From Syntrophorhabdaceae bacterium (GTDB lineage: Bacteria; Desulfobacterota; Syntrophorhabdia; Syntrophorhabdales; Syntrophorhabdaceae), in contig CAXXUO010000002.1 of assembly GCA_963666485.2 (NCBI GenBank), forward strand, positions 256,001 to 320,000: a stretch of DNA of 64,000 nt, read 5' to 3'. Shown here piece after piece: positions 18,609 to 63,888 of the stretch. A program made the translations under genes and the position numbers. The notes beneath the pieces were generated by a model. It saw only the letters and a program-made list of their open reading frames with translations, did no database searches and was not told the origin of the DNA. The first letter of the stretch is position 1, and each line of letters begins with the position of its first letter.

Positions 18609-18807
18609 TTACGTATCCTTGAGAATTCTTGCATGGGACCGGCGATCTGCCCGGACAAGCCCGCCGGGCGTAAAACCGGGCTGTGTGGTCAAATTTTGAG
18701 GCACAGTACCGTAACCGGCATTCGGATATGAGTCCCGGACGCTTAAAACAGCCGCCATGGATAATTTCTTCAAGGCCGCGGCGATAACGCAGCGGTGCAT
18801 GAGGAGA

Positions 18808-19008: not shown

Positions 19009-19118
19009 GATTAACTCCTGTACAACCTGTATTTGTGATAACTGCTGGGCAAATTGTATAACAACAATCCGGAAGATTGCAAGGCAATAAGCAAGGCTAA
19101 AACACGGGTATCGTTCGG

Positions 19119-46360: not shown

Positions 46361-49300
46361 CTACCACCTGTACTTGAATCCCATTCCCCCCGTATGCAGG
46401 GTCTCATTGGCGGAGAAGGCCCCTTCGTAGGAGAGATAGAGGGAGAGGTTGCCCATACCCTGGCGGATAACGGAAACGCCGGCAACGAGCCTGTCCCTGT
46501 CGGGCCTGTCGGGTATCACCGTGAATGGTGCCCCGGGGTACCCGGTGAAGGAGGCGTTCATGCCGTAGGTGTCGTCAGAGAACTCGTGGTCCCAGCGCAA
46601 CTTCATCTCGGGGATGAGGGTACCGCTCTCGAGGGCGAACTCCTTCCTTAACCTGACGCCAAGAGAGGAGACAAGGGACGAGTAGTTTTGCCTGTCGACG
46701 CTCAAGGCGAGTGTTTCCGCCCCCGACTCGGTAAACCCGTCGCGCAGGAGGTAGCTTGCCTGGATGCCGGCAAGGGGTACGATGTCCATGAAGGTTCCCG
46801 TGAACCTGTACCCCGTCTCCACGTACCCGCTCGCAATGTGCCCCGCGTAACTCGCCTGCGCGATCCGGTCGTCTGAAGAGAATGCGAGCAGCCGCGTCGT
46901 GTCGTAATCGTTGTACCCGTATCCCAAGATGCCGTTCACGTAGACGGGACCATGGGAGTAGACGCCGTATACGGACGCCTGATGGCCCTTCACGTATGCC
47001 GTGTCACTGAGCGCGTCCATGCCGAGCTTCGTATAGGAATACCCCATGGTGATCCCCATGAGAAGCGAAGGGCTGAGCTTCGTGTCGTATCCCATGACGA
47101 ACCCCGAGGTCGCCTGGTCATACCGGGAGGATATGTCGTTCTGTCTCGTCTCCCCGAATCCGCCGTACCCCCGGGCGAAGAAGCCCCATTGCGGTTGTAC
47201 GATGGGCTGGTCGGCTGCCTCGAGGGCGTTGAGCTGGGCAAGGAGCAGGGTAGGCGCGCTTGCGCCCATATCGGTGCGGGAGCCCATGATGGGAAGGCCG
47301 GCAAAAGAGGACCCCGGGTTCCCCGAGAGGAATGAATGCGCCCTTTCCTTCATGACGTCCATATACCTGTTGAACTGGGAGAAACCGGCGGATGCGGATG
47401 CCGTATGGTTATACCCGGCGAGCCTGTCATAGGAGTTCTTCGCCCCCTGGGCGGAGTGGCTCTCGAGACTCGTCATGGCAGACCCCAAGGAGGGCCTACC
47501 CTGCGATACGGCCATCTTGATCCTGTCCTGTGGCACGGGGACCTTATTCTTATCCTGTTCCGCCTTCTCGAAGATGCGCGCGACGCTCTTCTGGTTTGGG
47601 GTCTCGGCCACATCGGAGTACGCCCTGCCGTTGCGGGTGAGCGTCAGGTAGACGTTCTTGCTGTCATAGTTGAGCGAAGGATCGAGGAAAGCGAGGTTCG
47701 TTTCGGCATTCTTGAACGTGCCGTCAACCGTATTGGCGGTGAGGATCGTGTATTTTGTATCCTTCGCATAGGTACCGGTGTCCGCGAGGACGGACACGGT
47801 GCCGCCCATGAGCGTCGCTGTGCCCTGCCCCCGTGAATACCAGTGCGGCTTCGCCACGACGAGCCTGTCGGCCTGACCCATTTCATTGGCCCTGATCATG
47901 AAGAGCGCGCCGGGATTATGGGTGTAATTACCGTAGATGGTCATACGGTTATCCTTGCCGATGGGGTTATTCCTGTTATACGGCATCAAAATACCGCTGT
48001 TCGTGACGTCTCCGGTGATCGTCCCGCTGCCTGTAAGGATGCCGTTGCCGGCGATGTTGACTCCACCTGTGACATCGGTGTTCACCGCAAGGATGCCGTA
48101 TGGTTTTATGTTGGCGTTTGCGAATGAACTGTCCTTGGCCCCGCTTTCAAGGGTCCAGTAAGCGCCCCGTGTGCCGTTGCCGACGTTAAGATTTGTTATG
48201 TTCTTGAAATAGCTGTTGAGAGAATTAGACCCGTAGAGGTTCAGGGTGTTGTTTCCCTTGCCGAGGTCTATCTTCCCGATGATCGTCGCCCCTGTATCGA
48301 GAGAGACAATATCATCTCCCTTACCGCCGTAAATGGCATAGCCGTCATTCCACATCCACTGGAACCAGGATGTGTCCACGCCGCTTACTGTCCCGACAAC
48401 ATAGATGTTCATCGCGCCTTCGGACCGAATGGCGACGGCATCCCCGGACGCGTTGGCGAAGACCTTACCCGAAATGAACATCGCTGTGTCGGGCGTACCG
48501 CCGTTGAGTGCGCCTTTAGCATAGATGCCGTAGGCATTGTGGGCCGTACCCGGAATGCGAAGCCAGTAATTTGCCGGCTCGGCTTTTATCGTACCGGACA
48601 TGATGCGAACGGAGATATCCTTGTCGGCATAAAGGCCGTAAGCGGAGTTAAAACCGGCACCGACGACCCCGCCAACCGTGGTCGCGGAAGCCGATACAGT
48701 GCCCGAGAGGGTATCGATCTTTATGTTTTCGCCGGCATAGAGACCATAGCCTGCAGCGTAGCCGACGCCGCCCGCACCGACCCCGATTGCCGTCCCATGT
48801 GCGTTCACATTTCCCGACAGCGTGCCGATCGTGATGTCCTTCCCTGCATAGAGGCCGTAACCGGTTGTGGACGCCACGCCGACGACGCCGGTCGCGACAT
48901 CTGTCCCGTTTCCTTTCACAGTTCCCGATAACGTATCGATCGTGATATCCTTGCCGGCATAGATTCCGTAACCGGAGCCGTCGCCGCCTCCAACCCCCGC
49001 CGGAATGGCGCCGATCCCGACGCCGGTGCTGAGTGCAAACCCGCTCCCGGTCACGTTTCCGGACAGGGTATCGATCGTAATGGTGTCACCTGCATAAAGA
49101 CCATAACCCGAACCGGCCCCGCCTCCAACCCCGACACCCTGCAGGCCAATTCCGAGCCCGCCACCGACCGCTGTTCCTGACCCGTACACATTGCCTGAAA
49201 GCGTGCCAATTGCGAGGTTATTGCCTGCATAGACACCGTAGCCGGAACCATAACTGAGCCCGGCCGCTGCACCGACGCCAACTCCATCTTCGATTCCCAC

Positions 49301-52126
49301 GCCTATTCCCAGTGCGAGATCGAGAGCAAAACCCGTGCCCTCCACGCTGCCGGCAAGGGTGCCGACCGTGATATTCTGTCCGGCATAGAGGCCATAGCCG
49401 GAACCGTAACTTAAACCGGCCGCGGCGCCGACACCGCCGGCCGCGCCTATACCAATACCAAGTGTACCATTCATCGCAATCCCTTGACCGGCAACGTTTC
49501 CGGTGAGGCTGGTAATTGTGATATCCTTTCCGGCATAGACGCCGTAGCCGGACCCGTAACTGAACCCGGCCCCGACACCGACGCCAGCGCCCGATGCTTC
49601 CCCGTACCCGGCTTGAAGCTGTGCCGCGGAACCCGTACCGGCAACACGTCCGGTAAGGTTGGCGATGGTAATGTTCTCACCGGCATAGAGACCGTAGCCG
49701 GACCCGTAACTGAACCCGGCCCCGACACCGATCCCGGCCCCATTGTTGCCTGACCCTATGCCTATCCCGGCCCCGACAGCCGTTCCTGTTCCATACACGG
49801 TACCCGACAGAGTATTTATTGCGATATTGTTGCCGGCATAGACGCCGTAGCCGGAGCCGTATGCGCCAATAGATTCAATTCCTGCCGCTTTATCCGAATT
49901 CCCCAGCGCGATCCCGAATCCGACTGCCGTCCCGATACCTTCGGCCTTTCCCGACAGGGTGCCGACGGTTACATCTCTGCCGGCGTAAAGACCGTAGCCG
50001 GAACCGTATGCGCCGGTGAGCCCGGCCCCGGCCCCCAGGGACTCGTGATCGTACTTTTGTCCCGTGGTTATCCCGATGCCGGCTCCAACCGCACTGCCTG
50101 TCCCCGTTACCGTACCCGATAAGGTCTCTATCTTTGCGTCCCGTCCGGCGTACAGACCATAACCGGAACCGAAGGCGCCGTTAAAGCCGAGCCCGGCTCC
50201 AACTGCTTTATATTCATACGGTGTCCGTAATCCAAACCCGGCTGTGACCGCGGTCCCGGTCCCGTTCACAGTGCCCGACAGGGTGCCGACCGTAATATCG
50301 TTGCCGGCATAAAGGCCGTAACCGGAACCGTATGCGCCGGTAAATCCTGCTCCGACGCCGGCTGGAACGCGTTTCGTTTCTCCGGTCGCAACCCCGATAT
50401 CAAAACCGACAGCGGTCCCGGTCCCGTTCACAGTGCCCGACAGGGTGCCGACCGTAATATCGTTGCCGGCATAAAGGCCGTAACCGGAACCGTATGCGCC
50501 GGTAAATCCTGCGCCAAATCCCGCAGACCCGTCCCTTTCAAAATCGTCAAACATGCTCGTCCCGCGTCCGAAATCGAATCCGAACCCGACCGATGTCCCG
50601 GTACCGTTCACAGTGCCCGACAGGGTGCCGACCGTAATATCGTTGCCGGCATAAAGGCCGTAACCGGAACCGTATGCGCCGGTAAATCCTGCTCCGACAC
50701 CCTGGCCTTGTGTACTCCATGGATACCCCGAAGTACCGCTGCCGATCCTGAGCCCGGCACCCACGGCGGTCCCGGTCCCGCTCACTTCCCCCGACAGAGT
50801 GCCAATCCCAATATCGTTGCCGGCATAAAGGCCGTAACCGGATGCATACGCGCCGTTAAACCCGACTCCAACTCCGGCTGCCATGTCTGAATAACGCAGG
50901 TAACCCGCCCCGGCGGCGAGCCCGATCGCCATCCCGTCGCCTTTCACGTTCCCCTCGAGAATATTGATCCTGATATCGTGGCCGGCCCACGCGCCATACC
51001 CCGAGGCGAACGAGCCGCTGAATTCGGCCCCCGTCGCCGCGCCGTGCTGGAAAAGCTGCCCCCTGCCGATCGCGATACCAAGTCCGACCGCATTCCCGCT
51101 CCCCGTTACATTGCCCGAGAGCGTGCCGATCCCAATATCATTACCGGCGTAAAGGCCGTAGCCGGATGCATACGCGCCCGTAAACCCAAGCCCAAATACG
51201 TGCCAGGGTTGGGTCGCAACCGAGGTGTCAGGTGCGGAGCCATATCCATCGTATAGTCTTTTTCGCCCGAAGTTTATCGCCAAACCCACCGCCGTCCCGG
51301 TCCCGCTCACGTCGCCGGAGAGGGTGCCGATCGAGATATTTTCACCGGCATACATGCCATACCCCGATCCGTAGGCCCCCGTGAAGCCGTACCTCCCGGC
51401 TCCCACACCTACTCCCGTCCCGCTTCCCGAAACACTGCCCGATAAAGTACCGACGGTGATATTTTTTCCTGCATACATACCAAATCCCGATGCATATGCA
51501 CCCGCAAATATGGCCCCGAGTGCGCCCGACCCCCCGGTGCCGGTCACGGTGCCCGAGAGATTGTCGATAGCGATGTCATTCTCCGCATAGAGGCCAAAAC
51601 CCGTTCCGTATGCTGCGAAAAGCCCGGCTGACGCGCCGAGCCCGCTGACGTTGCCGGAGAGGGTACCGATGGTGATGCTGTCAGCGGAATAGATACCGTA
51701 GGCGTTGCCATAAAAGAGCATGATCCCCATTCCGCTCACGTCGCCGGAGAGTGCGTCCATGGCGAAACCTTTGTCGGCATAGATTCCGTATGTATAAAAG
51801 GGCCGGATCCGGGAACTGTTGAGCTTTACGTCGTGTCCGGGGGCATTTTCAAACTTCACCGGTTTTTTAAGTTCGGGAAGGCTTACGTCGAGCGTTGGAG
51901 GTTCCGTCGATCCGGGCTCCCGCGGGATGTCAAATACGATCTTGTTGCCGTCGTCATCTCCGCTTGCGTTAAGGTCTTGAATCGCCTGGTTGAGGGACCC
52001 CGGGCCGGAATCATTCGTGCTCGTGACGCGGTATTCTTTGGCCGGTCCGGCACAAGGAAAGGCCAGAAACATCAAAAGAAAAAATACGAGGCATGCAGCG
52101 GATTTCTTTTTTGGGAAGTCGTTCAT
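46361..52126 (-). CDS. Autotransporter adhesin with about 23 Gly-rich beta-solenoid repeats
   Basis: Signal peptide; VTSTNDSGPGSL; repeats GYGLYAGxDITIGTLSGxVxGxG; linker YDSKNVYLTLTRN; C-terminal beta-barrel ending FKYRW. Confidence 0.9.
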   Translation of the reverse strand: MNDFPKKKSAACLVFFLLMFLAFPCAGPAKEYRVTSTNDSGPGSLNQAIQDLNASGDDDGNKIVFDIPREPGSTEPPTLDVSLPELKKPVKFENAPGHDVKLNSSRIRPFYTYGIYADKGFAMDALSGDVSGMGIMLFYGNAYGIYSADSITIGTLSGNVSGLGASAGLFAAYGTGFGLYAENDIAIDNLSGTVTGTGGSGALGAIFAGAYASGFGMYAGKNITVGTLSGSVSGSGTGVGVGAGRYGFTGAYGSGYGMYAGENISIGTLSGDVSGTGTAVGLAINFGRKRLYDGYGSAPDTSVATQPWHVFGLGFTGAYASGYGLYAGNDIGIGTLSGNVTGSGNAVGLGIAIGRGQLFQHGAATGAEFSGSFASGYGAWAGHDIRINILEGNVKGDGMAIGLAAGAGYLRYSDMAAGVGVGFNGAYASGYGLYAGNDIGIGTLSGEVSGTGTAVGAGLRIGSGTSGYPWSTQGQGVGAGFTGAYGSGYGLYAGNDITVGTLSGTVNGTGTSVGFGFDFGRGTSMFDDFERDGSAGFGAGFTGAYGSGYGLYAGNDITVGTLSGTVNGTGTAVGFDIGVATGETKRVPAGVGAGFTGAYGSGYGLYAGNDITVGTLSGTVNGTGTAVTAGFGLRTPYEYKAVGAGLGFNGAFGSGYGLYAGRDAKIETLSGTVTGTGSAVGAGIGITTGQKYDHESLGAGAGLTGAYGSGYGLYAGRDVTVGTLSGKAEGIGTAVGFGIALGNSDKAAGIESIGAYGSGYGVYAGNNIAINTLSGTVYGTGTAVGAGIGIGSGNNGAGIGVGAGFSYGSGYGLYAGENITIANLTGRVAGTGSAAQLQAGYGEASGAGVGVGAGFSYGSGYGVYAGKDITITSLTGNVAGQGIAMNGTLGIGIGAAGGVGAAAGLSYGSGYGLYAGQNITVGTLAGSVEGTGFALDLALGIGVGIEDGVGVGAAAGLSYGSGYGVYAGNNLAIGTLSGNVYGSGTAVGGGLGIGLQGVGVGGGAGSGYGLYAGDTITIDTLSGNVTGSGFALSTGVGIGAIPAGVGGGDGSGYGIYAGKDITIDTLSGTVKGNGTDVATGVVGVASTTGYGLYAGKDITIGTLSGNVNAHGTAIGVGAGGVGYAAGYGLYAGENIKIDTLSGTVSASATTVGGVVGAGFNSAYGLYADKDISVRIMSGTIKAEPANYWLRIPGTAHNAYGIYAKGALNGGTPDTAMFISGKVFANASGDAVAIRSEGAMNIYVVGTVSGVDTSWFQWMWNDGYAIYGGKGDDIVSLDTGATIIGKIDLGKGNNTLNLYGSNSLNSYFKNITNLNVGNGTRGAYWTLESGAKDSSFANANIKPYGILAVNTDVTGGVNIAGNGILTGSGTITGDVTNSGILMPYNRNNPIGKDNRMTIYGNYTHNPGALFMIRANEMGQADRLVVAKPHWYSRGQGTATLMGGTVSVLADTGTYAKDTKYTILTANTVDGTFKNAETNLAFLDPSLNYDSKNVYLTLTRNGRAYSDVAETPNQKSVARIFEKAEQDKNKVPVPQDRIKMAVSQGRPSLGSAMTSLESHSAQGAKNSYDRLAGYNHTASASAGFSQFNRYMDVMKERAHSFLSGNPGSSFAGLPIMGSRTDMGASAPTLLLAQLNALEAADQPIVQPQWGFFARGYGGFGETRQNDISSRYDQATSGFVMGYDTKLSPSLLMGITMGYSYTKLGMDALSDTAYVKGHQASVYGVYSHGPVYVNGILGYGYNDYDTTRLLAFSSDDRIAQASYAGHIASGYVETGYRFTGTFMDIVPLAGIQASYLLRDGFTESGAETLALSVDRQNYSSLVSSLGVRLRKEFALESGTLIPEMKLRWDHEFSDDTYGMNASFTGYPGAPFTVIPDRPDRDRLVAGVSVIRQGMGNLSLYLSYEGAFSANETLHTGGMGFKYRW
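50250..50698. repeat. Three near-identical 100-bp repeats inside the autotransporter
   Basis: ...CCGTTCACAGTGCCCGACAGGGTGCCGACCGTAATATCGTTGCCGGCATAAAGGCCGTAACCGGAACCGTATGCGCCGGTAAATCCTGC at about 50250, 50412 and 50596. Confidence 0.85.
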
Positions 52127-52544
52127 GGCTTTCTCCTTATAATGCCGGATACGATCGAGCCTCTCGGACCTTTTCGTAACCTGATAATTTTTATGGTGCT
52201 CTATATTCTAGCTTTTATACGGACTCCCGCACTATAGAGAGATATCGATATTTGATGTAGATAAAAGCTGATAAAATTAGGATCTTTACGTCCCGTTGAA
52301 AAAAGATTGTTTCGCAGAAAAACAGAGAGACCCTGCCACCAGGCCGGATTCTAGTAAATTCCTGATTCGTCGATGCAGGATCGATCCCGCCCCGGAATAT
52401 CTGCCTGAACCTTAAATACGTGCCCATGGTTATGTGAATAAATAACCGACTACAGGTAATCGTTAGGTCCAACGACATCATTCTGTCCCCGTACCTGATT
52501 AAATGATTCCCATTTAGGATCATTTGATCGTGAGGAGGTTTTTC

Positions 52545-53837
52545 ATGAAAAAATTGGCTTTAACCCTGTTAACTCTCTTGCTTGCCATCCCCGCATTGAG
52601 CGACGCGGGCGGCGTATCGAGCAGGTACGACGTGACATTCGGCGGGTATGTAAAATATGATGTCGGTTATTCAACGCAGAATAATAATGCGGACCCGATA
52701 CTGGCCAGCCGGGAAAGCAGCGGTAGAATTAGATGGCTCGCGGATGACTATGGGAATACATTCCAGACCGCGGGCGAAACGCGCTTTAACTTCCTCATCA
52801 AGGGCCCCGACCTGGGCGGCGCCAAAACAAAGGCCTTTATCGAAGGCGATTTCCGGGGGGTGACAACAGGAAGTTCTTACGGCGGTTTCCAGTTAAGGCA
52901 CGCTTTCATGACCCTGAACTGGCCGACTGCGGAATTAATGCTCGGGCAGAACTGGCAGCAATGGGGCATGCCGTACTATAACGCGGCGATCGGCATCAAT
53001 GATTTCGCCCAGTATATTGGCGGGCACAGGACCCCCCAGGCGGCATTCCGTTATTTTTTTACAAAGGAGTTCAATGCAATGGCCGGTCTGACCGCGGCGA
53101 CGGAATGGTCGGGAGCCGACGGGATCAACGGGTACAATGACGGTTATGCTCGAAGCGGCTGGCCCGGGCTCATGGGCGAGATAGCGTACACGACGGACGG
53201 GTGCGGCAAGATCGGACCGAACAACCTGAAATTTGCCATTGGCGGGTACTTCGGGAAAGAGAAACAGATATGGCCCCCGTACAAATCAACGCGCAGCGAA
53301 AAAGGGTACCAGGACGATGAAGTCGATGCATGGCTCACCGCCTTCCGGTACAGCATTCCCCTCGTCCCGGAAAAACAGGGCAATAAGGCAATGTCCCTTC
53401 TCCTGAACGGCAATTTCTTTTACGGCCAGAACGTGGCAGGCAATAACTGGATGATGCCCGGCGGCCCGAGCAATGGCTCATACTGGCGTAATTTCCGCAC
53501 CATGGAAGCTGCTGCCCCGGTGGTATGGGGAGCTTTCGCCCAACTTTCATGGTGGCTGACGGATACGCTGTCGGTCAACGGAATGTACGGGTACCTGAAA
53601 TATAAATATAGCACCATAGCCGAGGACCTGATGCCTGACCATGTCAACATGATGCAGACCTGGGGCGTGAATCTCTTGTGGAACGCCAACGAATCGCTGC
53701 GGTTGGGCCTGCAGTGGATGACGATGTTCACGGGGTACAACAGGCCGTACTATTTCCCGGCAATAGGCTTCAAGGACTCCGGGGACCGCACGGGAAAGAT
53801 CGACCAGTACAGGCTGGCAGCGTGGTATTTCTTCTAA
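52545..53837 (+). CDS. Outer-membrane porin (DcaP-like)
   Basis: RBS GAGGAGG, signal peptide, GGYVKYD, ETRFNF, FIEGDF, LRHAF, LGQNW, C-terminal aromatic WYFF. Confidence 0.8.
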   Translation: MKKLALTLLTLLLAIPALSDAGGVSSRYDVTFGGYVKYDVGYSTQNNNADPILASRESSGRIRWLADDYGNTFQTAGETRFNFLIKGPDLGGAKTKAFIEGDFRGVTTGSSYGGFQLRHAFMTLNWPTAELMLGQNWQQWGMPYYNAAIGINDFAQYIGGHRTPQAAFRYFFTKEFNAMAGLTAATEWSGADGINGYNDGYARSGWPGLMGEIAYTTDGCGKIGPNNLKFAIGGYFGKEKQIWPPYKSTRSEKGYQDDEVDAWLTAFRYSIPLVPEKQGNKAMSLLLNGNFFYGQNVAGNNWMMPGGPSNGSYWRNFRTMEAAAPVVWGAFAQLSWWLTDTLSVNGMYGYLKYKYSTIAEDLMPDHVNMMQTWGVNLLWNANESLRLGLQWMTMFTGYNRPYYFPAIGFKDSGDRTGKIDQYRLAAWYFF

Positions 53838-53854
53838 GACATTTCCCGGCTCAC

Positions 53855-53884
53855 ATGGGTCCCTTATAGTCAGGGGCCCATTTA
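53855..53884 (+). terminator. Possible intrinsic terminator after the porin
   Basis: Hairpin ATGGGTCCCT...AGGGGCCCAT followed by a short T run. Confidence 0.35.
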
Positions 53885-53953
53885 ACCCTGCCGGCCGACA
53901 ATCGTTCGCTTGTTTTCCCGGGCGGCATATACTACAATTCTAGCATTCACGGG

Positions 53954-55666
53954 ATGACACGAGAAGGTTCAACGAAGAGTAAAGCCAGAACAGCACAGGT
54001 CTTAAGGCTCCTGCACGCATTGCTTTCAGATATCGCCGGGCCGGAGATCAGGCGGCTTGTCACCGCCGCCCTTTTCATTTGTCTCTCCACTTTTGGTTCC
54101 ATCGCCGGGCCTTTCCTCATAAAAGAGATCATAGATGTCGCGCTTCCGGCGAGGGATGTCCGCCTCCTCGGCATTTACTCGGTACTCCTGCTCCTGACGA
54201 ATGCGGTTGCGCTCGTTTTCTGGTCCATCCATTCCCGTTTCGCCATACGCTCATCCGAAAGGATCTTTCTGAAATTCCGCGAAAAGCTTGTTTCCGCCGT
54301 CTTGCGGAAGAGGCTCGATTTCTTCTCCCGGTACGGGTCGGGGGATATCCTTACGAGAGTTAATAACGACCTCGACTTTATCAGCCTTTTTCTCCATCAG
54401 ACGGTGCTGCGCTGCCTGGCGTTTTCCGTTTTCTCGATCGTCCTCCTGGCCGGGCTCATTATCTGGAACTGGCGGCTGGGCCTCACATTCCTGCTGACCC
54501 TTCCCTTTCTCCAGTTCTACGCCTGGAAAACATACGAGCCCGCGGCGAAACATTTCAGGTTATCCAAGGAGAAACTTTCATCGCAGAGCGAGACCCTTCT
54601 CGATATCCTCGCCGGCGTCCCTGAACTGAGGTTCTACCAGCAGGGCCGGGAGGCGGTCCGGCGCTTCCGGCGCAACGCGGAGGCATATACCGAACAAAAT
54701 ATCCGGACGCTCATGATCAGTGATCATTTTTCGAACGGGCTCGATTTTCTCGGGGTACTGGTGCGGCTCCTGCCGTTCATCGTCGGCGGCTATCTTATCT
54801 GCCTCGGCTCATCCGACATTACGATAGGCATGCTCGTTGCCTATTTTGTCATATTCTTCCGCCTCGCGCTCCAGATATTCGCCATTTTTCAAGGCATCCT
54901 TGCATCCGCACAGGCGCTGCCCTCATTGCAGCGCCTGAAAGAACTCCTGGATTTTCCCGAAGATACCGAGCCCGAAGAGTTCGGCATCGATGAGGTCCCT
55001 GACGCGACCGATATTGAATTTAACGATGTCTCGTTCGCTTATCCGAACGGTCATCCCGTTTTTACAGGCCTCAACCTCCGTGTCAGCCAGGGAGAAAAGG
55101 TGGCCATCATGGGCCAGAGTGGATCCGGCAAAAGCACGCTCGCGCAGCTGATCACGCGGTTCCTTGCCCCGAGTTCCGGCCATGTGCTTTTCGGAGGCAA
55201 GGATGTCAGATCGTACCCCCTGGCGTTTTACCTGAGCTTTTTCGCCTATGTCCGGCAGGAGGCCCATTTATTCAAGGTCAGTTTCAAGGACAATATCGCG
55301 ATGGGGTGGTACGGGGTCCCCCTGGACCGCATCAAGGAAGCGGCGTCCCTTGTCCGCATGAACGACGTAATCGAGCGATTGCCGATGCACTATGACACCG
55401 TGTATGCCGAGGACGGCACGAATCTTTCCGGCGGGCAGAAACAAAGGATCGCTCTCGCGCGGGCGCTTATCCGGGACCCCCATATCCTGGTCCTCGACGA
55501 ATTCACCTCCGGGCTCGACCCCCAGGTGGAAAAAGAGATACTTGACGACATGTTCGCATTGTTCGAGAAACAGACGATCATATGCATAACCCATAAACAA
55601 TCGGTCGCCGACAGGTTTCAGAGGACCATTACGATCGGCCAGGCCGTGCACTCTCCCATTTCGTGA
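53954..55666 (+). CDS. ABC exporter, fused permease and ATPase
   Basis: N-terminal TM domain, GQSGSGKST, LSGGQKQRIALARAL, LVLDE, ITH. Confidence 0.92.
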   Translation: MTREGSTKSKARTAQVLRLLHALLSDIAGPEIRRLVTAALFICLSTFGSIAGPFLIKEIIDVALPARDVRLLGIYSVLLLLTNAVALVFWSIHSRFAIRSSERIFLKFREKLVSAVLRKRLDFFSRYGSGDILTRVNNDLDFISLFLHQTVLRCLAFSVFSIVLLAGLIIWNWRLGLTFLLTLPFLQFYAWKTYEPAAKHFRLSKEKLSSQSETLLDILAGVPELRFYQQGREAVRRFRRNAEAYTEQNIRTLMISDHFSNGLDFLGVLVRLLPFIVGGYLICLGSSDITIGMLVAYFVIFFRLALQIFAIFQGILASAQALPSLQRLKELLDFPEDTEPEEFGIDEVPDATDIEFNDVSFAYPNGHPVFTGLNLRVSQGEKVAIMGQSGSGKSTLAQLITRFLAPSSGHVLFGGKDVRSYPLAFYLSFFAYVRQEAHLFKVSFKDNIAMGWYGVPLDRIKEAASLVRMNDVIERLPMHYDTVYAEDGTNLSGGQKQRIALARALIRDPHILVLDEFTSGLDPQVEKEILDDMFALFEKQTIICITHKQSVADRFQRTITIGQAVHSPIS

Positions 55667-55713
55667 GATAATGGGACGCAATAATTCATGAGTTCATTGA
55701 GGAGGAATATTAC

Positions 55714-56700
55714 ATGATCAAATTGACGCCGGATGAGGTCAGGGAACGTTTCGGGAAATTCTATTATGAATCCTTCCTCACAATAGTGGATAGTGAAAAA
55801 AGTAAGATCGAGATAGTCGAAACCTTCGGCAATTATCCCGGCAGTGCGGAATGGACTGCGATAAACAGGTGCCGGGCAGGAGGAATAATCGAGTCCTATG
55901 AAATATACGGGCAGACATCGTATATCAGGGCCAGGCTGGGCGAATCTCCCGTTCATTTCGGGCCCGCGGATGCCGAGCAGGGCGGACAGGCGCTGCAGGG
56001 GGCGCTGGTCGAAGGTGACCGGGTCAGGACAAAATGGATCGGCATCGCAGGCATGAGCCTGAGCACATGCGGTTCCCTGACGCAGGCCCCGGGGGTCATC
56101 GAAGCGTGGTACCCCTCCGAAGACGACCTCAATGTCGGGGGCAATAAGACAGGGCGTGTCGAGATCATCTCTCCGGCGTACGAAAAAATAAGCTTCGGTA
56201 TTGACGATACGGACGACCCGAGCGGCGGGGCAACATTCGCGCTTATAGTGAACGCGCGGCTCGAGGCGGGCAAGATCCCCGGGGTACACCCTCTTATGGT
56301 CAGGTTTGCCCAGTTGCTGCCGAAGTGCCCTTATAAAACGACGAACTGTACGTCGTCATTTATGTCCTTCGCGGTCAGGCCGGGTACAGCCCGGAAGGTC
56401 ATCGATGTCATCGTGGACATGGTCAGGTCTCAATCACGCTCCGATGATGCCGCAATCGCCGTGCTGAGCGGTATAGGTGTGCCCGGGAACCTGGTTGCCT
56501 TCGGGTGGGATGCGAAAAGGCGCATGATCTCGCTCGACGAGGCATATGCGTTGGATGGCAAAGAAGGGGTTGATCTGATCCCCGTGGGACCCGGCAAAAA
56601 GGGGCTGATCGGCGCATTGGCTGCACTTGGCCTCTCCGAAGAAAAATATGCCGCCGCCCTCGAAAATGATAAAGGTTTTGACCTTATCAGAAGATGGTAG
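55714..56700 (+). CDS. Methanogenesis marker protein 11 (DUF1743/TiaS-like) homolog
   Basis: RBS GAGGAGG. GIDDTD..GGAT, QL.P..P.KTTNC.S, GLIGALAA (TiaS-like C-half). The N-half motifs EW..NR.RAGG, GGQAL.G and QAPGV match the archaeal family as I recall it. Confidence 0.75.
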   Translation: MIKLTPDEVRERFGKFYYESFLTIVDSEKSKIEIVETFGNYPGSAEWTAINRCRAGGIIESYEIYGQTSYIRARLGESPVHFGPADAEQGGQALQGALVEGDRVRTKWIGIAGMSLSTCGSLTQAPGVIEAWYPSEDDLNVGGNKTGRVEIISPAYEKISFGIDDTDDPSGGATFALIVNARLEAGKIPGVHPLMVRFAQLLPKCPYKTTNCTSSFMSFAVRPGTARKVIDVIVDMVRSQSRSDDAAIAVLSGIGVPGNLVAFGWDAKRRMISLDEAYALDGKEGVDLIPVGPGKKGLIGALAALGLSEEKYAAALENDKGFDLIRRW

Positions 56701-56725
56701 AAAACGACCGCTTTAGGACTGTTCC

Positions 56726-58231
56726 GTGGAACCTTTCGCTGACAATTCAACGCTGATCGTACCGAACGATCTTTTTTATATGCCCCTCATCCAGGCTTTT
56801 ATATCTGAGGTTGCAAACAGGATGGGATTCAGCAAGCGTGACATGTCCATGATGATGGTCGCTGTCGAAGAAGCGGTCGTGAACGTGGTCAGGCATGCCT
56901 TTGAGCCCGGTGAGAAAACAACCTTTCAGGTCATTGTTGCACCGGGCAATATGAACTTAACGGTCATTATCAAAGACAAGGGACTGCCGTATTCACCTGG
57001 CATCGTGCCCGATTATAACCCCCCGTCCGATATTTATGACGCAGCCAATGCCGGGCTTGGCTTATATCTTATAAGGAAGGGCGTTGACGAAATATTTTTC
57101 AATAACCTGGGCCGGGAAGGCAAAGAACTGCACCTTGTCAAACATGTTCCGTACCGCAGTGTCCAGGAGATACACACCGAAACCGAACTTGAACGTTTCC
57201 CTGAACCTGTCGTAACAGGACCGGCCAAACAAAAGTCCTTTTCCATCCGCCCGATAGAACCGTCCGAGGTTTACGACGTGTCAAGGCTGTTTTACCGGAC
57301 GTACGGGTATACATACGGCGTCGATACGATCTATTACCCTGAAAAACTCGCCCAAAGCCACGCCGATGGAACGATAACATCCGTGGTGACTGTCGGGGAA
57401 GATGGCCGCCTCGTCGGGCATGCCGCACTTGTGCGCGATGGCAGGGAAGACAGGATAGCCGAGCTGGCAATGGCTGTTGTCGAGCCCTCGTACAGGGGGC
57501 ACGGATGTCAAAACCTGATGACCCTGCGCCTCGTTGAGGAAGCGAAGAAGGAAGGCCTCGCCGGGATATACAGCAAGGCCGTCACCAATCACATGTACGC
57601 ACAGAAAGCCGGGGAGAAAGCGGGATTCAAACGGTGTGCGCTTGTCGCCGGTGTGATCCCCGCAGACAGGATATATAAGGGAATGGACGCTGCCTTAACC
57701 CAGCGCGGATCGGTGGTCTTTGGGTACAAGGCGGTTGGCGACCCGGGGAATATCATGGTGTTTGCACCGTCAAAACACAGCGCGATCATCCAGAAGACGT
57801 ACGGGGCATTGGGGATAGACCGGGTCTTCGCGGAAGGGCCCCGGAAAGAGCAGGAGGCCGATGAGGAGCCAGGGGACGTCAGGGTCGCCGTTATTCCCGG
57901 ATTCAACCGTGGGACAATTGAGGTCAAGAAATACGGAAAGCATACAGCGGTGCAGGTGCACACCATCCTCAAGATGCTTTGTTACCAGAAGGTCGACCAG
58001 ATAACGCTTTATCTCAATTCCCACGATCCGGCCATATGTGGTCTGATCGACACATTTGAAAACATGGGGTTCTTCTACGCAGGCATCCTGCCCTTTTCGC
58101 ACGTGGGAGACGCGCTGCTGCTCCAATATCTCAACAATGCGCCCATCGATTACGACAAGGTTTACGTGGCATGCGAGATGGGCCGCGAGATCCTGGAATA
58201 TGTGAGATCATGCGATCCTAACAACCGGTAG
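56726..58231 (+). CDS. Fusion of RsbW-like HATPase_c domain and GNAT acetyltransferase
   Basis: AVEEAVVNVVRHA, DKG, GLGLYLI; then FYRTYGYTY...YYPE, LVGHAAL, VVEPSYRGHG, AVTNH..AQK. Confidence 0.8.
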   Translation: MEPFADNSTLIVPNDLFYMPLIQAFISEVANRMGFSKRDMSMMMVAVEEAVVNVVRHAFEPGEKTTFQVIVAPGNMNLTVIIKDKGLPYSPGIVPDYNPPSDIYDAANAGLGLYLIRKGVDEIFFNNLGREGKELHLVKHVPYRSVQEIHTETELERFPEPVVTGPAKQKSFSIRPIEPSEVYDVSRLFYRTYGYTYGVDTIYYPEKLAQSHADGTITSVVTVGEDGRLVGHAALVRDGREDRIAELAMAVVEPSYRGHGCQNLMTLRLVEEAKKEGLAGIYSKAVTNHMYAQKAGEKAGFKRCALVAGVIPADRIYKGMDAALTQRGSVVFGYKAVGDPGNIMVFAPSKHSAIIQKTYGALGIDRVFAEGPRKEQEADEEPGDVRVAVIPGFNRGTIEVKKYGKHTAVQVHTILKMLCYQKVDQITLYLNSHDPAICGLIDTFENMGFFYAGILPFSHVGDALLLQYLNNAPIDYDKVYVACEMGREILEYVRSCDPNNR

Positions 58232-58232
58232 A

Positions 58233-58334
58233 CCACACACACCCCTCGTCATCCACACACACCCCTCGTCATCCACACACCACCGTCGTCATCCACACAC
58301 CACCGTCGTCATCCACACACCACCGTCGTCATCC
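58233..58334. repeat. Five tandem 20-bp repeats
   Basis: CCACACACACCCCTCGTCAT x2, then CCACACACCACCGTCGTCAT x3. The last unit runs into the family B palindrome. Confidence 0.9.
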
Positions 58335-58473
58335 CGGTGCTTGACACCGGGATCCAGTGTCTTTGTCCTTTCTTTTTTATTTCCGGTATAAGCGATCTCA
58401 GACTGTGCAATAACCACATGCAAGACGGATATGAGAGAAATCCTGGATCCCGGTGTCAAGCACCGGGATGACG
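58327..58473. repeat. Palindromic element, family B, copy 2
   Basis: Arms at 58327-58357 and 58443-58473, identical to the arms at 10226-10375. Confidence 0.88.
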
Positions 58474-59901
58474 TGAATTGGTAGAAGCCCTTCTATTTAT
58501 TTTCCCGAGCAGCGAAAAAATACATGCGACAAAACAGCACAATGCGCCCGCCAGGTATGCGTAACGGAAGCCCGGCAATGCGGATTGTGCGGTCAGTTTT
58601 CCGACGAGATCGCTCCCGCCGGACACACCCGAGGAAAAGATCGCCTCTAAAACGGTGACCCCGAGCACCATCCCGAGATTGTTGACCGTGTTGAACAGTC
58701 CCGAGGACACCCCGCGTTTATCCGGGGGCGCGTATGTCATGATCTGGTTATTGTTTGGTGAAAAAAACAGGACAAAGGAAAGCGCAAGCCAGACGAGATA
58801 TACGAATACCGTGGCATAGCCTCCCCGGGAAAGCGATAACGCAAATGTCAGGACGCAGGCCGTGGCGGACAGTGTGGCAATGCTGCATAACAGTGCGGGG
58901 TTTACCCGGTCTGAAAGCCGGCCGGCCGCAGGAGACAGAGCAACATAAATGACCGAATAGGCTATGAGGACCATTCCCGTCTGCTGCGCGTTGAGCCCCA
59001 TTACCACGTCGAGATAAAATGGCAGAAGGATGCCGTTCCCGGATATGAGCATATAGGCGAAGAATGTCGCTATAAGGGCGAATGTAAAATGAGGACGGGA
59101 AAAAAGGCGTATGTCGAGAAGCGGGTCATCGTGCCGCAGTTCCCACCAGGCAAAGAACCCGAGCGATATGAGGGCCAACCCCAAACAACCGACAGTCTCC
59201 GGCGACAACCCCCGGGTATTGAGATGATTGATACCCCATATGAAGAAGGCAAGTCCCGCGAAACTTACTGCGGCACCCGTAAAATCAAACGGCTGGCCCT
59301 CCCCTCGAACCGTCTTGCCGCCACGGTCATCAGGCCCCGGAATGAATCTGCTGCCCGCTGCAATTGCTGCTATACCGACAGGGACGTTGATAAAGAATGC
59401 CCAGTTCCATGAAAGGTATCCCGTCACGATCCCGCCGACGGGAGCGCCTGTCGCCACGCCGAGGGCCGATGCGGTCGAGGTGATGCCGAACGCCCATCCC
59501 GTCCTTTCGGGCGGCAAAAGCTGGGAGATTATCGCAAAGCTGACGGCAAGAAGCATCGAGGCGCCGATCCCCTGGATAACGCGGCACAGGATAAGCATCG
59601 TGAGATCATGAGACAGCCCGCACAAGAGCGAGCCCACCGTGAAAACCGCGTACCCTGCGATGAACACGCGTTTCAATCCTATCCTGTCGCCGAGCTTTCC
59701 AAAAAGCAGCAGCGTTGTCGTGATAACGAGAAGATAGGATGAGAGTACCTGGGAAGCATCTGACGATGACATACCGAGCGAACGGGAGATCGTCGGCAGG
59801 GAAACGTTGACCATGTAATTATTGAGGCGCACAAGGAATGAGCTGAACGCCACGCTCATCACGATCAGAAAATAGGCATACGTACGGTTTTGGGCGGCCA
59901 A
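58456..59901 (-). CDS. MFS transporter, DHA2 (14-TM) family
   Basis: VNVSLPTI, FGKLGDRIGLKR, RVIQGIGAS, WNWAFFINVPVG, FDFTGA, PLLDIRLF. Confidence 0.9.
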   Translation of the reverse strand: MAAQNRTYAYFLIVMSVAFSSFLVRLNNYMVNVSLPTISRSLGMSSSDASQVLSSYLLVITTTLLLFGKLGDRIGLKRVFIAGYAVFTVGSLLCGLSHDLTMLILCRVIQGIGASMLLAVSFAIISQLLPPERTGWAFGITSTASALGVATGAPVGGIVTGYLSWNWAFFINVPVGIAAIAAGSRFIPGPDDRGGKTVRGEGQPFDFTGAAVSFAGLAFFIWGINHLNTRGLSPETVGCLGLALISLGFFAWWELRHDDPLLDIRLFSRPHFTFALIATFFAYMLISGNGILLPFYLDVVMGLNAQQTGMVLIAYSVIYVALSPAAGRLSDRVNPALLCSIATLSATACVLTFALSLSRGGYATVFVYLVWLALSFVLFFSPNNNQIMTYAPPDKRGVSSGLFNTVNNLGMVLGVTVLEAIFSSGVSGGSDLVGKLTAQSALPGFRYAYLAGALCCFVACIFSLLGKINRRASTNSRHPGA

Positions 59902-59911
59902 TGTGAATTAT

Positions 59912-61054
59912 TTATAATCTTTGGCTGTCCATCGCAAGCTTTTTCTCGTCGCCCTTTAGTTCCCGGGGACAATGTGCGGCGCGGTGCGGGTCATGATCGA
60001 GGACATAGGACTTGATGGCGGCAAGTGTCTCCGATGCCACGTTAATATCATCATAGTCGACATGGGCGTTATGGACATATTGAAGGACGAGAGCGTCCCC
60101 GACCGGGGAATGCGGCATGATACCCGAAATAAAGAACCCCAGGCGTTCGAATTCCCGGCAGGCCGTTGCAGTATGGGGTGATGCCAGGGGAAGCTCCATC
60201 GAAATGTATCGGATATCCCTCGCCCGCATATCACGCCACAGTTCCTCGACGCAGCGGTAAATACCCACACCATACCGATCGATCGTGACCTGCGCCACAT
60301 CCCTGGCGACCATGCGCGCCTTCAGTAAGGCACGCCCTGTTAAAGGGGGGCGATCCGCCGGCGCAAGGCTTACCGGGGAGCGCTTCAATCCTGCCTGTCT
60401 GTACAGCATCTCGATAAATTTACGATGGTGTACAGGGGGATATATCGTTATGTCCCGTTGATCCTTGAGCGGCAGGTAGCCTATTGCCAGGGATTGTCTT
60501 CTCCCGGGGGCCGGATGTTTTCCGTCGTATATCCTGCGGTCCGGCATTATGCCCACCTGGAGACCGATGCGCTTGAAACCGAACTTCTGGCCCGTCTTTT
60601 GTGCAAATACATGGTGCGTCACACCCTGGCTCAGGATCCCCTCAAGACCTCGCGCCCGCGCCTCCTGTATGACCGCGCCCAGCATCCTGGATTCACACCC
60701 CATATTGCGAAAATCTCGATGGACCACAGACAATGCGGCCCGCCCAAAATCAGCCTCTTTATTGTCCTTTATCAGTGCACAGTGGCCGACCACCCGGCCG
60801 TCAGGGGCAATGGCAACGATCGACGTCAACTCCCCTCTCGATATTCTTCCCGCCAGGATATCCGCACTGTAAACCCCGGGGTTTGCGTCTCCAAAGACGC
60901 TTTCAAAAGTGCGGCCATAGACGCTTTCAAATAGTGCCGGTATTTGCTGCACATCCCCGGGTCCCGCTTTTCGTATTTCGATCAAGGACGTGCATTCGTG
61001 CCGGGCCGATGAATCATGCACGACCCTGCTTGCGGACGAAACGGACGATATCAT
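59912..61054 (-). CDS. GNAT acetyltransferase, paralog of the C-terminal part of 56726-58231
   Basis: VVGHCAL, VVHRDFRNMG, GVTHHVFAQK, FERLGFFISGIMPHSPVGDALVLQY. Confidence 0.8.
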   Translation of the reverse strand: MISSVSSASRVVHDSSARHECTSLIEIRKAGPGDVQQIPALFESVYGRTFESVFGDANPGVYSADILAGRISRGELTSIVAIAPDGRVVGHCALIKDNKEADFGRAALSVVHRDFRNMGCESRMLGAVIQEARARGLEGILSQGVTHHVFAQKTGQKFGFKRIGLQVGIMPDRRIYDGKHPAPGRRQSLAIGYLPLKDQRDITIYPPVHHRKFIEMLYRQAGLKRSPVSLAPADRPPLTGRALLKARMVARDVAQVTIDRYGVGIYRCVEELWRDMRARDIRYISMELPLASPHTATACREFERLGFFISGIMPHSPVGDALVLQYVHNAHVDYDDINVASETLAAIKSYVLDHDPHRAAHCPRELKGDEKKLAMDSQRL

Positions 61055-61098
61055 GACCCTTTTCCTTCCCCTTTCACGTCAGTTAACATGGTGCCCCT

Positions 61099-61572
61099 TC
61101 AATCCCTCGCAATGTCCGCCATACCGGCGAGGTCCTCCGGGATCGGCAAATACTTGATCAGATGGAGCTCTTTCCCGTCGGGATGGTTCCTCACCATCAC
61201 CTGGTCAAAACTGCTTCGCATGATCTGGAAACCCAGGCCCGACTCGGGGTAACTGTCAATATTCCTCGCAGACATATCGTCCGGGTACAGTGCAGTTTCG
61301 TGTTCGAACGGTTTGCCGTCATCCCGGACAACGATCGAGAACAGGGAGTCCGTAATACGGAATATGATCTCATACATAGCTTTTTCCGTCGTGCCGTATG
61401 AATGCGTGATAACGTTAAGAATGGCCTCTTCGAGCCCGAGGCACACCTTGGCCCTGTCGACGGCGCCGAGGCGCGCTTTTTTGCCCAACTCGTCCGTAAA
61501 TGCCTTCGAAGCCATAAGCGAATAGAGATTGTTCGGAAGTACCAGTTTCGAACTGTAACCCAGACCCTTCAT
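61099..61572 (-). CDS. RsbW-like ATP-binding protein (HATPase_c)
   Basis: RBS GGAGGT. LEEAILNVITH, DDGKPF, GLGFQIM, GKELHLIK. Confidence 0.85.
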   Translation of the reverse strand: MKGLGYSSKLVLPNNLYSLMASKAFTDELGKKARLGAVDRAKVCLGLEEAILNVITHSYGTTEKAMYEIIFRITDSLFSIVVRDDGKPFEHETALYPDDMSARNIDSYPESGLGFQIMRSSFDQVMVRNHPDGKELHLIKYLPIPEDLAGMADIARD

Positions 61573-61936: not shown

Positions 61937-62590
61937 TCAATCGGGCATTATCAGGCCATGCTTGATCGAAAATTTTATGAGTTCGGAATAATCTTTCAGC
62001 ATGAGCTTCGTCATGATGCGATGGCGGTATGTCGCAACGGTACTCGGCGCGAGAAACAAGATATCGGCCACATCCCTGTTTGATTTCCCTTCCGAAATGA
62101 GCTGCGTTATCTCTCTTTCCCGGCGCGTCAGTTTTTCGAAATAGTCGCCTTTTTCTTCCCTGTCACGGTACCTGATATAATCGTCTATGACCGTACCGCT
62201 GACGGAATCGCAGATATAACGTTTCCCGGAATATACCGCATTTATGGCCCGGATGAGCTCCTCACCCGCAAGCTCTTTCAAGAGATATGCCGATGCGCCC
62301 GCCTTGAATGCGCGGAATATGTGTTCCTGCGAGGCATTCATCGTCAATATGATGATCTTTGTCTCTTTGTGTTCCTCGCGAATCGCATCCGTAGCATCGA
62401 TGCCGTTCATCTCAGGCATGAAAATATCGAGGATGACGATGTCGGGTTTTTTCTTGAGGACCTCCCTCACCGCCTCCCGCCCGTTGGAACTCTCGCCTAC
62501 CACCGTGATGTTTCTTTCATTTTCCAGGAGCAGCCTGATCCCCTGTCTGAACATTATGTGGTCATCAGCCAGAAAAACATTAATACTCAT
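61937..62590 (-). CDS. NarL/FixJ family response regulator
   Basis: VFLADDH, PDIVILDIFMP, LTRREREI, TVATYRHRIMTKL. ATG 62590 overlaps the kinase stop. Confidence 0.93.
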   Translation of the reverse strand: MSINVFLADDHIMFRQGIRLLLENERNITVVGESSNGREAVREVLKKKPDIVILDIFMPEMNGIDATDAIREEHKETKIIILTMNASQEHIFRAFKAGASAYLLKELAGEELIRAINAVYSGKRYICDSVSGTVIDDYIRYRDREEKGDYFEKLTRREREITQLISEGKSNRDVADILFLAPSTVATYRHRIMTKLMLKDYSELIKFSIKHGLIMPD

Positions 62591-63716
62591 AAAGGCACCT
62601 CGACGAAGATGTGTGTTCCCTTTCCCAGGTCCGATGTGATCGTGCATGAGCCGCCGATCACTATCGACCGCTCTCTCATGGACAAAAGTCCCATGCCTTT
62701 TTGTCCGTTTCCCTTGCGTGATCGGGTCTTCTTGTATCCTATGCCGTTATCCCGGATGGCCAGAAGAAGCGAATTATCTTTCAGGTGGACATCGATCTCG
62801 ACCGCTGTTGCCCGGGCATGTTTGGACACGTTTGTCAGGGCTTCCCTGGCTATGAGAAAAAGCGTGCTTTCAATATGGGCCTCCGGCCTTGGATGCAGAT
62901 CTTTTCCCCTGACGTCCACCTCTATGCCTGTTTTTTCCGAAAATTGACGGGAATACCAGCGCAGGGCGGCGACCAGTCCATAGTCGTCGAGCACGGGAAG
63001 CCTCAATTCCGTAAGGATATTTCTTATCTTGGCCGTCGTGTCCTTGAGAAGCATTGCGGAGTCGCTGATTATTTTTTTCGTCGATACGAGAGATTCCTTC
63101 GACATAACAGATTGCAAGAGATTGAGATTGAGGCCGATCGTGCTCAAGTTTTGCCCGATCTGGTCATGGATCTCACGGGAGATACGTTTTTTTTTGCGCC
63201 TCTTCGGCCATTGCCAGACGACGGATAAGAGATTTCAACTCTTCGTAGACCTGGTTCAATTCCAGGGTCCTGGCCTTGACCCGCATCTCCAATTCGTCGC
63301 GTGCGGCTTATCAGCTCGTTTTCCAATTTCTTCTCGATCGTTATGTCAATGCCTACCGAAAGCACCTGGTGGATCTTGCCCTCACCGTCCACCAGTCCTC
63401 TGTTTGTCCAGGCAATAACAACGCGTTCCCCCGACTTCAGGATATTTTCATTGATGTTCTTGATATACCGGTCGGGGTCCTTGCAAACGTCTTGCATGAC
63501 ACGAGATAATTTTTGTCCCGAACTATCGGTCACGGGGACGATCGTACCGAGAATGTTCAATCCAATGAGTTCGTCAAGCTTAAAACCGAAAAATTCTGAC
63601 CCGTACCTGTTGATATACTGTATTGTCCCGGCAGGCGACCACAGGAGTATGATACTGTTTGCCATCTCGGCCAAATCTTCATAAAGCTGCGGCATTTTAT
63701 TCATAATCCGGCTCAC
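62587..63716 (-). pseudogene. PAS + HisKA_3 sensor kinase with one +1 frameshift
   Basis: The PAS part and the kinase part (RISREIHDQIGQNL, EALTNVSKHA, DNGIG, GMGL) are in different frames. Removing one A at about 63308-63309 joins them as ...ELIAARDELEMRV... Confidence 0.75.
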
Positions 63717-63888
63717 CCCACTGTAAGTAATGCACTATGGATTAATTATGTCAAAATAATTTTGATCATATCAAGGCCTGTTTCCTCTTTTCAACGATCA
63801 TTGATGCCGTTTGTCAACATCGGACGACAGACGCGCCCTATCCTGCCGATTAAACTTGAGGTCAAAAAAAGAGTATAAGGATGACGCT

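Follow-up and report, generated by a model that had tools for sequence, protein, structure and literature searches.

The closest described relatives of the protein considered here are methanogenesis marker 11 (TIGR03280), which we take to be the m17/DUF1743 family of Adam et al. 2022, and TiaS, whose DDTD, T18-type Thr, K-T and G-x-IGA residues form its ATP/Mg site and phospho-acceptor. Adam et al. describe m17 as a predicted ATPase whose function is indeterminate, a verdict they apply to both marker 4 and marker 11 (PMC9635834). Marker 4, MtxX (Mmp4; TIGR03270; PDB 9NZY), resembles the Pta/Ptb phosphotransacylases. The accessible parts of the paper on its structure describe a PTA fold in which the catalytic Arg is kept, the catalytic Asp base is missing and extra arginines are present, together with a cleft that should accommodate a ligand both hydrophobic and acidic; PlsX is among the structural homologs, and mtxX adjoins uppS in Methanobacteria and Methanococci (PMC12978539). 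Those parts give no function for MtxX and mention neither bacterial copies nor a linkage to marker 11 (PMC12978539). Our literature search, in which subscription journals were poorly covered, found no paper that ties Mmp11 or MtxX to coenzyme B or that reports bacterial copies.

The later steps of coenzyme B synthesis comprise decarboxylation, thiolation, ATP-dependent coupling to threonine via an acyl-phosphate, and phosphorylation. According to work by White in 1994, the late intermediates are said to run from 7-mercaptoheptanoate through its acyl-phosphate and the N-acyl-threonine to the O-phospho-threonine amide. We know of no genes for the last steps of this synthesis and of no bacterium that uses coenzyme B. 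The precursor 2-oxosuberate may also feed biotin or lipoate. Coenzyme B is made via 2-oxosuberate by the Aks enzymes, and in the available sections of one paper genes are named only for 2-oxoacid elongation (PMC3087415).

We analyzed a 64,000-nucleotide stretch of the genome of a Syntrophorhabdaceae bacterium (the window), which encodes a marker 11 relative that we call Mmp11-II (Table 1). This gene belongs to a module that is real, rare and co-transferred, and that is a variant of known families; the fold of the protein and its intact ATP-site motifs are shown below, as are the linkage of the genes, their joint transfer and the purifying selection on them.

Table 1. Coordinates of the mmp11-II gene, its domains and its neighbors (window positions unless another contig is given)
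Feature	Position	Strand	Basis or remark
Type II Mmp11-family protein, 328 aa	55714..56700	+	predicted ATP-dependent small-molecule kinase/ligase
Shine-Dalgarno-like gaggagg, 5' of the ATG of mmp11-II	55699..55705	+	seen in the sequence
N-terminal domain, ~residues 1-155	55714..56178	+	AF2 pLDDT 93.5 (domain folded alone); type II motif table
TiaS TCKD-like kinase domain, residues 156-317	56179..56664	+	structure superposition, Foldseek, sequence alignment
Type IV (exporter-fold) ABC half-transporter, small bacterial clade	53954..55666	+	47 bp gap to mmp11-II
HATPase_c_2 (RsbW-like)-GNAT fusion	56726..58231	+	25 bp gap after mmp11-II
Porin-like outer-membrane protein	52524..53837	+	no HMM match; call from sequence features
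NarL-type response regulator and frameshifted PAS histidine kinase	61937..63716	-	kinase at 62587-63728
mtxX/Mmp4 of the host, 185 bits	G000:C2:335793-336626 (L098:9794-10627)	-	~23 kb downstream of mmp11-II, outside the window

A two-domain protein of the Mmp11 superfamily

An earlier note on this DNA had described a full-length open reading frame with three TiaS-like motifs. All are present, namely GIDDTD at residues 162-167 (56197-56214), KTTNC at 208-212 (56335-56349) and GLIGALAA at 297-304 (56602-56625), and a plausible ribosome-binding sequence precedes the start codon (Table 1). The same note had called the protein a homolog of marker 11 and proposed a check against the marker 11 and DUF1743 models. 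Homology was borne out, as TIGR03280 matched with 163 bits (E 8e-48) over model positions 2-287 of 292; the score, however, lies below the curated equivalog cut-off of 255.8, and the protein falls in a separate clade. These two results rule out a canonical marker 11.

The relationship to TiaS is confined to the C-terminal half of the protein. The Pfam TiaS_TCKD model gave 25.7 bits against a cut-off of 27, and the TiaS FLD/DUF1743 model gave no match at E<=0.01 in the Pfam search. The TiaS model itself scored 48.8 bits (cut-off 600) and covered only positions 3-159 of 422, which rules out a TiaS ortholog. The AlphaFold model of the whole protein (pLDDT 90.5) shows two domains. When residues 156-317 were superposed on the TiaS-tRNA-ATP complex (3amt), VIA returned a Z of 22.1 with an rmsd of 1.8 Å over 154 residues, and Foldseek matched the domain to TiaS with an E of 4.9e-9; the TiaS-like catalytic domain proposed earlier was thus recovered. 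Sequence alignment shows that DDTD, the K-T pair, G-x-IGA and the Thr equivalent to TiaS T18 (T174) are retained. Mmp11-II therefore shares with TiaS the TCKD fold and the ATP-site motifs, but it lacks the rest of TiaS, and its N-terminal domain is unrelated.

For that N-terminal domain, the best VIA match had a Z of 6.7 over 56 of 156 residues, and Foldseek returned nothing at E<=0.001, leaving no clear match among solved folds. It carries the signature E46-W47-x3-N51-R52-x-R54-A-G-G plus GGQ92, and it is the putative substrate-binding part of the protein. Full-length homology across both domains places the protein in the Mmp11 superfamily, comprising types I-III.

The same genome also encodes a stand-alone TCKD-only protein of 242 aa, flanked by a UMP-kinase-fold protein and a porin paralog that is 55% identical to the one at 52524 in the window (region L016:7299-10601; G000:C3 near 396756). 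Short TCKD-only-like matches were also seen in genomes G003, G036, G040 and G060.

Types I, II and III

A tree of 64 Mmp11 sequences, hand-chosen from 237 full-length ones (IQ-TREE, LG+G4), separated type I, the canonical form (100/99), from type II (96/99) and from a third clade of longer proteins, type III. The window protein falls within type II and not within the clade of above-cut-off marker 11 proteins. Other type II copies scored 173-234 bits against TIGR03280, and a tandem type I copy scored 334. Fourteen rows form a bacterial clade (100/100), several of them unlabelled proteins grouped by tree position; this clade groups with seven further proteins, six of Methanocellales type and one unlabelled (100/99), and the combined group joins the type II proteins of Methanomicrobiales (100/98). 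The branch leading to the bacterial copies is long (0.38 changes per column). An AU test of an archaeal type II clade without the bacteria gave a p-AU of 0.0435, a borderline rejection of a hypothesis framed after the tree was seen.

The distribution of the types was surveyed in a sample of 201 Halobacteriota genomes, in which matches between 180 and 234 bits were counted as type II. Type II and type I occur in tandem in 24 of the 38 genomes with type II, and no type II was found in 66 of the 103 genomes with type I. Type II is thus not a required step of de novo synthesis, and the idea that types I and II are two required kinases was rejected, as many methanogens have type I only. Together, the two types cover the methanogens seen; Methanobacteria and Methanococci lie outside the sample. 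Among 121 Thermoplasmatota genomes, 22 of 24 matches occurred as single copies scoring 203-232 bits; the score identified them as type II, and for G065 the tree did so too.

Types I and II share full-length homology, the two-domain build and the TCKD motifs, but they differ in the N-terminal domain: type II has E-W-x3-N-R-x-R-A-G-G and GGQ, whereas type I has W-x3-H-Y and a glycine loop (GLGGGG). Because these conserved residues differ, the two types probably act on different substrates. Their partners differ as well, type I being linked to genes for a TPP enzyme and a radical SAM (rSAM) protein, and type II in bacteria to MtxX and an ABC transporter. Marker 11 is thereby split into paralogs with different partners. 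Type III proteins, of 370-400 aa with an N-terminal extension, were noted in several archaea (L107:1168-2361, L129:6465-7583, L130:6074-7252 and L131:6813-8021).

Occurrence in bacteria

The mmp11-II gene is surrounded by bacterial genes on a contig of 669 kb, and a 5.5-Mb chromosome from the same family, assembled as a single contig (G692), carries an ortholog. Short-read contigs spanning 52000-58295 showed no differences; all came from one sample, possibly the source. Taken together, these observations rule out contamination or mis-binning. The GC3 of the gene (0.66) is inside the interquartile range of the genome (0.65-0.73). Its dN/dS against four orthologs was ~0.05-0.09 and that of mtxX 0.05-0.06, with dS near saturation in both cases; by this measure, both genes are under purifying selection.

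Carriers are few. We found the gene in 4 of 69 genomes of the family, which hence does not need it, and in none of 300 other genomes of the phylum. A metagenome scan yielded one bacterial-type locus among four. A widespread bacterial family, which the earlier note had named as grounds for abandoning its reading, is therefore ruled out. Among the best 80 of 440 confirmed matches in a scan of genome contigs, the top five are bacterial (from Syntrophorhabdaceae, Syntrophaceae, Syntrophus and one unclassified deltaproteobacterium), and the others are archaeal or mis-binned archaeal. Four contigs titled Bacteroides, Ruminococcus, Dialister and Prevotella (L082, L087, L089 and L091) have Methanomassiliicoccales-type gene order and sequences and are probably mis-binned; on the basis of this synteny, they were left out of the bacterial count.

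The host is not a methanogen by the markers sought: it has no McrB match, and its relatives are labelled Syntrophorhabdaceae. Homologs of HdrA, HdrB and HdrC are present. No match to the rSAM, DUF7714, ComDE or cysteate synthase genes was found in the host genome, and its TPP-enzyme matches are IorA-like only. The rSAM ortholog is also absent from four other carriers and from G006. On this evidence, a route to a thiol precursor is not apparent in the bacterial carriers.

MtxX as the conserved partner

Nine bacterial loci in eight records hold a full-length mmp11-II (the window, L012, L013, L014, L018-L021 and L155; L017 duplicates L012). In seven of the nine, the next gene is mtxX, the most conserved partner of mmp11-II; the copy of the host lies beyond the window and was overlooked in the earlier note. 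The exceptions are the window, where the distance is 23 kb, and L013, a second copy in a genome whose pair is at L012. The order mmp11-II then mtxX also holds in all four Methanocellales-type loci among the best 80 of 440 matches. Elsewhere, mtxX directly follows type II in L122 and L124 and immediately precedes it in L054.

The bacterial MtxX proteins score 164-210 bits against TIGR03270 (cut-off 190); they retain the conserved Arg residues, and most have the DTSR motif. In the MtxX tree, Methanocellales form the sister group (100/97) of a clade made up of the seven bacterial proteins (100/99). Since this tree and the Mmp11 tree both unite bacteria with Methanocellales (100/97 and 100/99) and the gene order is common to both groups, the data indicate a single transfer of a two-gene mmp11-II/mtxX cassette. 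The transfer from methanogens suggested by the earlier note is thus corroborated, and the co-transfer into bacteria ties markers 4 and 11 together. At one locus, on a single-contig chromosome, an IS1380 transposase follows mtxX, and two unannotated open reading frames, one transposase-like, lie between the ABC and mmp11 genes (L020:7394-9398 and 11878-13359 for these features together).

The ABC transporter and the window neighborhood

As the earlier note had stated, mmp11-II lies between the ABC and HATPase-GNAT genes (Table 1). An ABC half-transporter 54-67% identical to the one in the window occurs within 4 kb in eight of the nine bacterial loci and at ~12 kb in the ninth, in tandem, divergent or convergent arrangements relative to the pair; the proposed link to the transporter accordingly stands. 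Of 61 relatives, the four that carry mtxX (G000, G001, G002 and G006) are also the four that carry the ABC ortholog, and three of them have a full-length mmp11-II; as these genomes are close kin, the co-occurrence does not amount to a statistical test. In G006, both genes are on one 1,562-bp contig that is cut inside mtxX. No ABC ortholog was found in three Methanocellales-type and two Methanomicrobiales genomes, the Methanocellales matches being only 26-29% identical, so the transporter was recruited in bacteria. Homologs at 40-50% identity exist in other bacteria as well. Comparison with PDB sequences gave generic ABCB/MsbA-type matches only and no clue to the substrate. The best-supported conclusion is that Mmp11-II, MtxX and the transporter very probably constitute one unit, in which a small, transported molecule would be phospho-activated at the expense of ATP and undergo acyl transfer.

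Other parts of the earlier picture of this neighborhood did not survive. The interval 53954-61572 had been treated as a single operon, but 58456-61572 is on the opposite strand from mmp11-II. An amino-acid permease had been listed as a neighbor; such permeases lie just beyond the window edge (L015). The GNATs had been taken to point to an amine-containing product, but among the eight other loci, several of them short, a GNAT and porin fragments recur only in G002, of the same genus, and the DHA2 MFS in none. Comparison thus lends little support to such a product and does not support any of the three as core parts of the module. The HATPase_c_2-GNAT fusion is probably co-transcribed with mmp11-II in the window; from its distribution, it does not appear to be a conserved part of the module. 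A 571-aa dehydrogenase-like neighbor was also rejected, being present in 22 of 61 relatives; this Rossmann-fold protein (L098:858-2573) corresponds to PF27054 (ESM Atlas) and lies beside amino-acid permeases. The main functional clue came not from the GNATs of the window but from archaeal neighborhoods with coenzyme B precursor genes.

Archaeal neighborhoods and coenzyme B

Type II heads an operon in 41 of 75 archaeal loci, where the next genes are type I and those for a LipS2-like radical SAM protein, a TPP enzyme and AksA-, AksD-, DUF7714- and AksF-like proteins. These loci carry all seven of the operon genes searched for, an arrangement that was not found for the bacterial copies; most remaining Methanomicrobiales loci are short, so that only the first operon genes are visible. 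The Aks genes of the operon do not reach the cut-offs of the equivalogs from methanogens, with HacA_Meth at 427 of 550 and AksF2 at 311 of 540. Homologs of AksA, AksD-E and AksF thus follow type II and type I genes in Methanomicrobiales, whereas the bacterial hosts show no TPP or rSAM ortholog of that operon. L025:1322-9968 and most Methanomicrobiales loci in L025-L096 contain a candidate complete coenzyme B operon, with AksE sometimes included. DUF7714 is weakly XcbA-like in L079.

Outside this operon order, type I adjoins the TPP enzyme or the rSAM gene. In the Halobacteriota sample, all 47 genomes with a TPP match above 350 bits have type I, in 39 of them within 4 kb; the count was limited to that score as the profile failed to separate Methanomicrobiales orthologs from IorA. 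At L117:6777-11794, type I mmp11 and the rSAM gene adjoin cysteate-synthase-like (PALP) and ComDE-like (TPP) genes, which suggests that coenzyme M and coenzyme B genes cluster there. A TPP enzyme, an rSAM protein of a sulfur-inserting type, a TiaS-type kinase and a PTA-fold protein match the late steps of coenzyme B synthesis one to one.

Methanomicrobium mobile provides a natural deletion that points to a salvage role for type II. The available part of one review lists this organism as requiring coenzyme B, and the same part states that its factor remains unidentified (PMC10658910). Its draft genome retains type II and mtxX and has no type I, rSAM, TPP ortholog or AksA/LeuA match. The three Methanomicrobium loci gave matches to type II and DUF7714 alone; they represent one loss event rather than three. 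Two Methanomassiliicoccales-type genomes also have type II and mtxX with no TPP ortholog, although one has a 38% identical rSAM homolog and one a LeuA-length synthase. These cases indicate that type II and MtxX remain when de novo synthesis is missing, as would be expected of a finishing or salvage module.

A proposed function and its alternatives

Our best guess is that mmp11-II encodes the kinase half of a two-enzyme module that came from a Methanocellales-related archaeon. Tentatively, the module would comprise a kinase and an acyl-phosphate transferase that finish or salvage coenzyme B or an analogue, a proposal we put forward as possible. Mmp11-II would use ATP in its TiaS-type site and place a phosphate on an oxygen of a small, anionic substrate, which the conserved N51, R52 and R54 of the N-terminal domain would hold. 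MtxX would move an acyl group between an acyl-phosphate and an amine; its loss of the Asp base, its retained Arg and the hydrophobic and acidic ligand expected of its cleft would suit an amine acceptor such as threonine. Together, the two proteins could perform late steps of coenzyme B assembly, with type II as a salvage or finishing version that was kept after the loss of de novo synthesis. Of two candidate phosphorylations, that of the threonine hydroxyl is our first guess for type II. Several points count against the proposal: most type I genomes in the sample showed no type II, no thiol-precursor route is apparent in the hosts, few genomes of the family carry the gene, no bacterium is known to us to use coenzyme B, uppS adjoins type II or mtxX in several archaeal groups, the Aks genes of the operon fall short of their cut-offs, and 2-oxosuberate may serve biotin or lipoate as well.

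In bacteria, the pair was joined to a bacterial ABC transporter, and the module might carry coenzyme B, dephospho-coenzyme B or a closely similar molecule through the membrane and complete its assembly. The simplest use would be as a thiol/disulfide partner for the host HdrABC or in exchange with a methanogen partner. That some Syntrophorhabdaceae and Syntrophaceae, families with known syntrophic partners of methanogens, took over coenzyme B-finishing enzymes, coupled them to a dedicated transporter and use the product with their own HdrABC or trade it with methanogens is, in our estimation, unlikely. The aromatic catabolism of these bacteria passes through the C7 compound pimelyl-CoA, a possible source of the heptanoyl chain that would need no Aks genes.

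Should the coenzyme B interpretation prove correct, the missing late enzymes of its synthesis would be named, and with them candidate targets for methane mitigation; these hosts would also be the first bacterial case of coenzyme B uptake, completion or export, and cofactor exchange between syntrophs and methanogens would be suggested. The bacterial copies should be easy to express, which would allow a direct two-enzyme assay.

Somewhat unlikely, yet the most serious of the alternatives, is that the bacteria repurposed the same chemistry for an unrelated N-acyl amino acid or amide exported by the transporter, with coenzyme B possibly still the substrate of the archaeal family. The transporter has an exporter fold and is bacterial in origin, the bacterial Mmp11 branch is long, and the hosts show no de novo coenzyme B genes. 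In the eight other bacterial loci, several of which end near the gene so that the counts are lower bounds, amino-acid permeases lie near the pair in at least four, a two-component gene in at least three and acyltransferase-3 in at least two. However, the bacterial copies keep the type II N-terminal signature of Methanocellales, which suggests the same substrate class, and no precursor-making enzyme is conserved beside the pair.

We consider it quite improbable that the module is catabolic, with the transporter importing coenzyme B or another N-acyl amino acid and the pair running towards phosphorolysis, much like Pta/Ack, to yield threonine and an acyl-phosphate for carbon, sulfur or energy. 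The PTA fold of MtxX, as given in the accessible parts of the structure paper, accords with this scheme (PMC12978539). So do the uptake and catabolic genes around the host mtxX, which include an aromatic-acid-type MFS (the next gene after mtxX), a DctA-like symporter, a CoA-transferase and an acyl-CoA dehydrogenase; these are not conserved elsewhere, however, except for the MFS in G001 and G002 and DctA in G002. Moreover, we know of no TiaS-type chemistry that runs as substrate-level phosphorylation.

To about the same degree, we doubt that the pair adds an acyl or phosphate group to a precursor that is polyprenyl-linked or belongs to the envelope and that the transporter then flips or exports. 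Type II adjoins uppS in all 12 Methanomassiliicoccales-type loci, a neighbor that hints at lipid or envelope chemistry, and OpgC-like acyltransferase-3 genes lie near the pair in L014, L015 and L155. The uppS neighbor of mtxX in Methanobacteria and Methanococci and the structural homolog PlsX, both from the available parts of the structure paper, point the same way (PMC12978539). Against this, uppS is not beside the pair in the bacterial, Methanocellales or Methanomicrobiales loci, and the family is tied more extensively, through operons, to Aks, TPP and rSAM genes.

Finally, although TiaS is the sole close structural relative and NCBI names several copies "tRNA(Ile2) 2-agmatinylcytidine synthetase", it is highly improbable that Mmp11-II modifies a macromolecule as TiaS does (phosphorylating or amidating tRNA or protein, with MtxX and the transporter as passengers), given the low and partial TiaS score, the missing TiaS domains, the separate TiaS-length open reading frames of archaeal carriers (410 aa in G062, 457 aa in G061) and an ABC link that persists through several different gene arrangements.

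Other features of the window

A scan for promoters and terminators returned 4 promoter-like sites against 5.1 expected and was uninformative. The PAS histidine kinase is broken across three frames relative to an intact 387-aa homolog in L155, which marks either a pseudogene or an error in the assembly. The interval 58236-58475, which separates the convergent GNAT and MFS genes, contains 5.1 copies of a 20-bp tandem repeat and a palindromic REP-like element with ~63 matches across the genome.

Three regions farther from mmp11-II, all on the minus strand, were also noted. On inspection of the sequence, 16056-20285 encodes an MFS exporter and a pair of proteins that look like radical SAM/SPASM members, possibly a cluster of the RiPP type. 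The genes at 12177-15965 specify two proteins that look secreted and contain coiled-coil stretches as well as repeated CxxC motifs, and a 1921-aa glycine-rich autotransporter with a 162-bp tandem repeat occupies 46361-52126.
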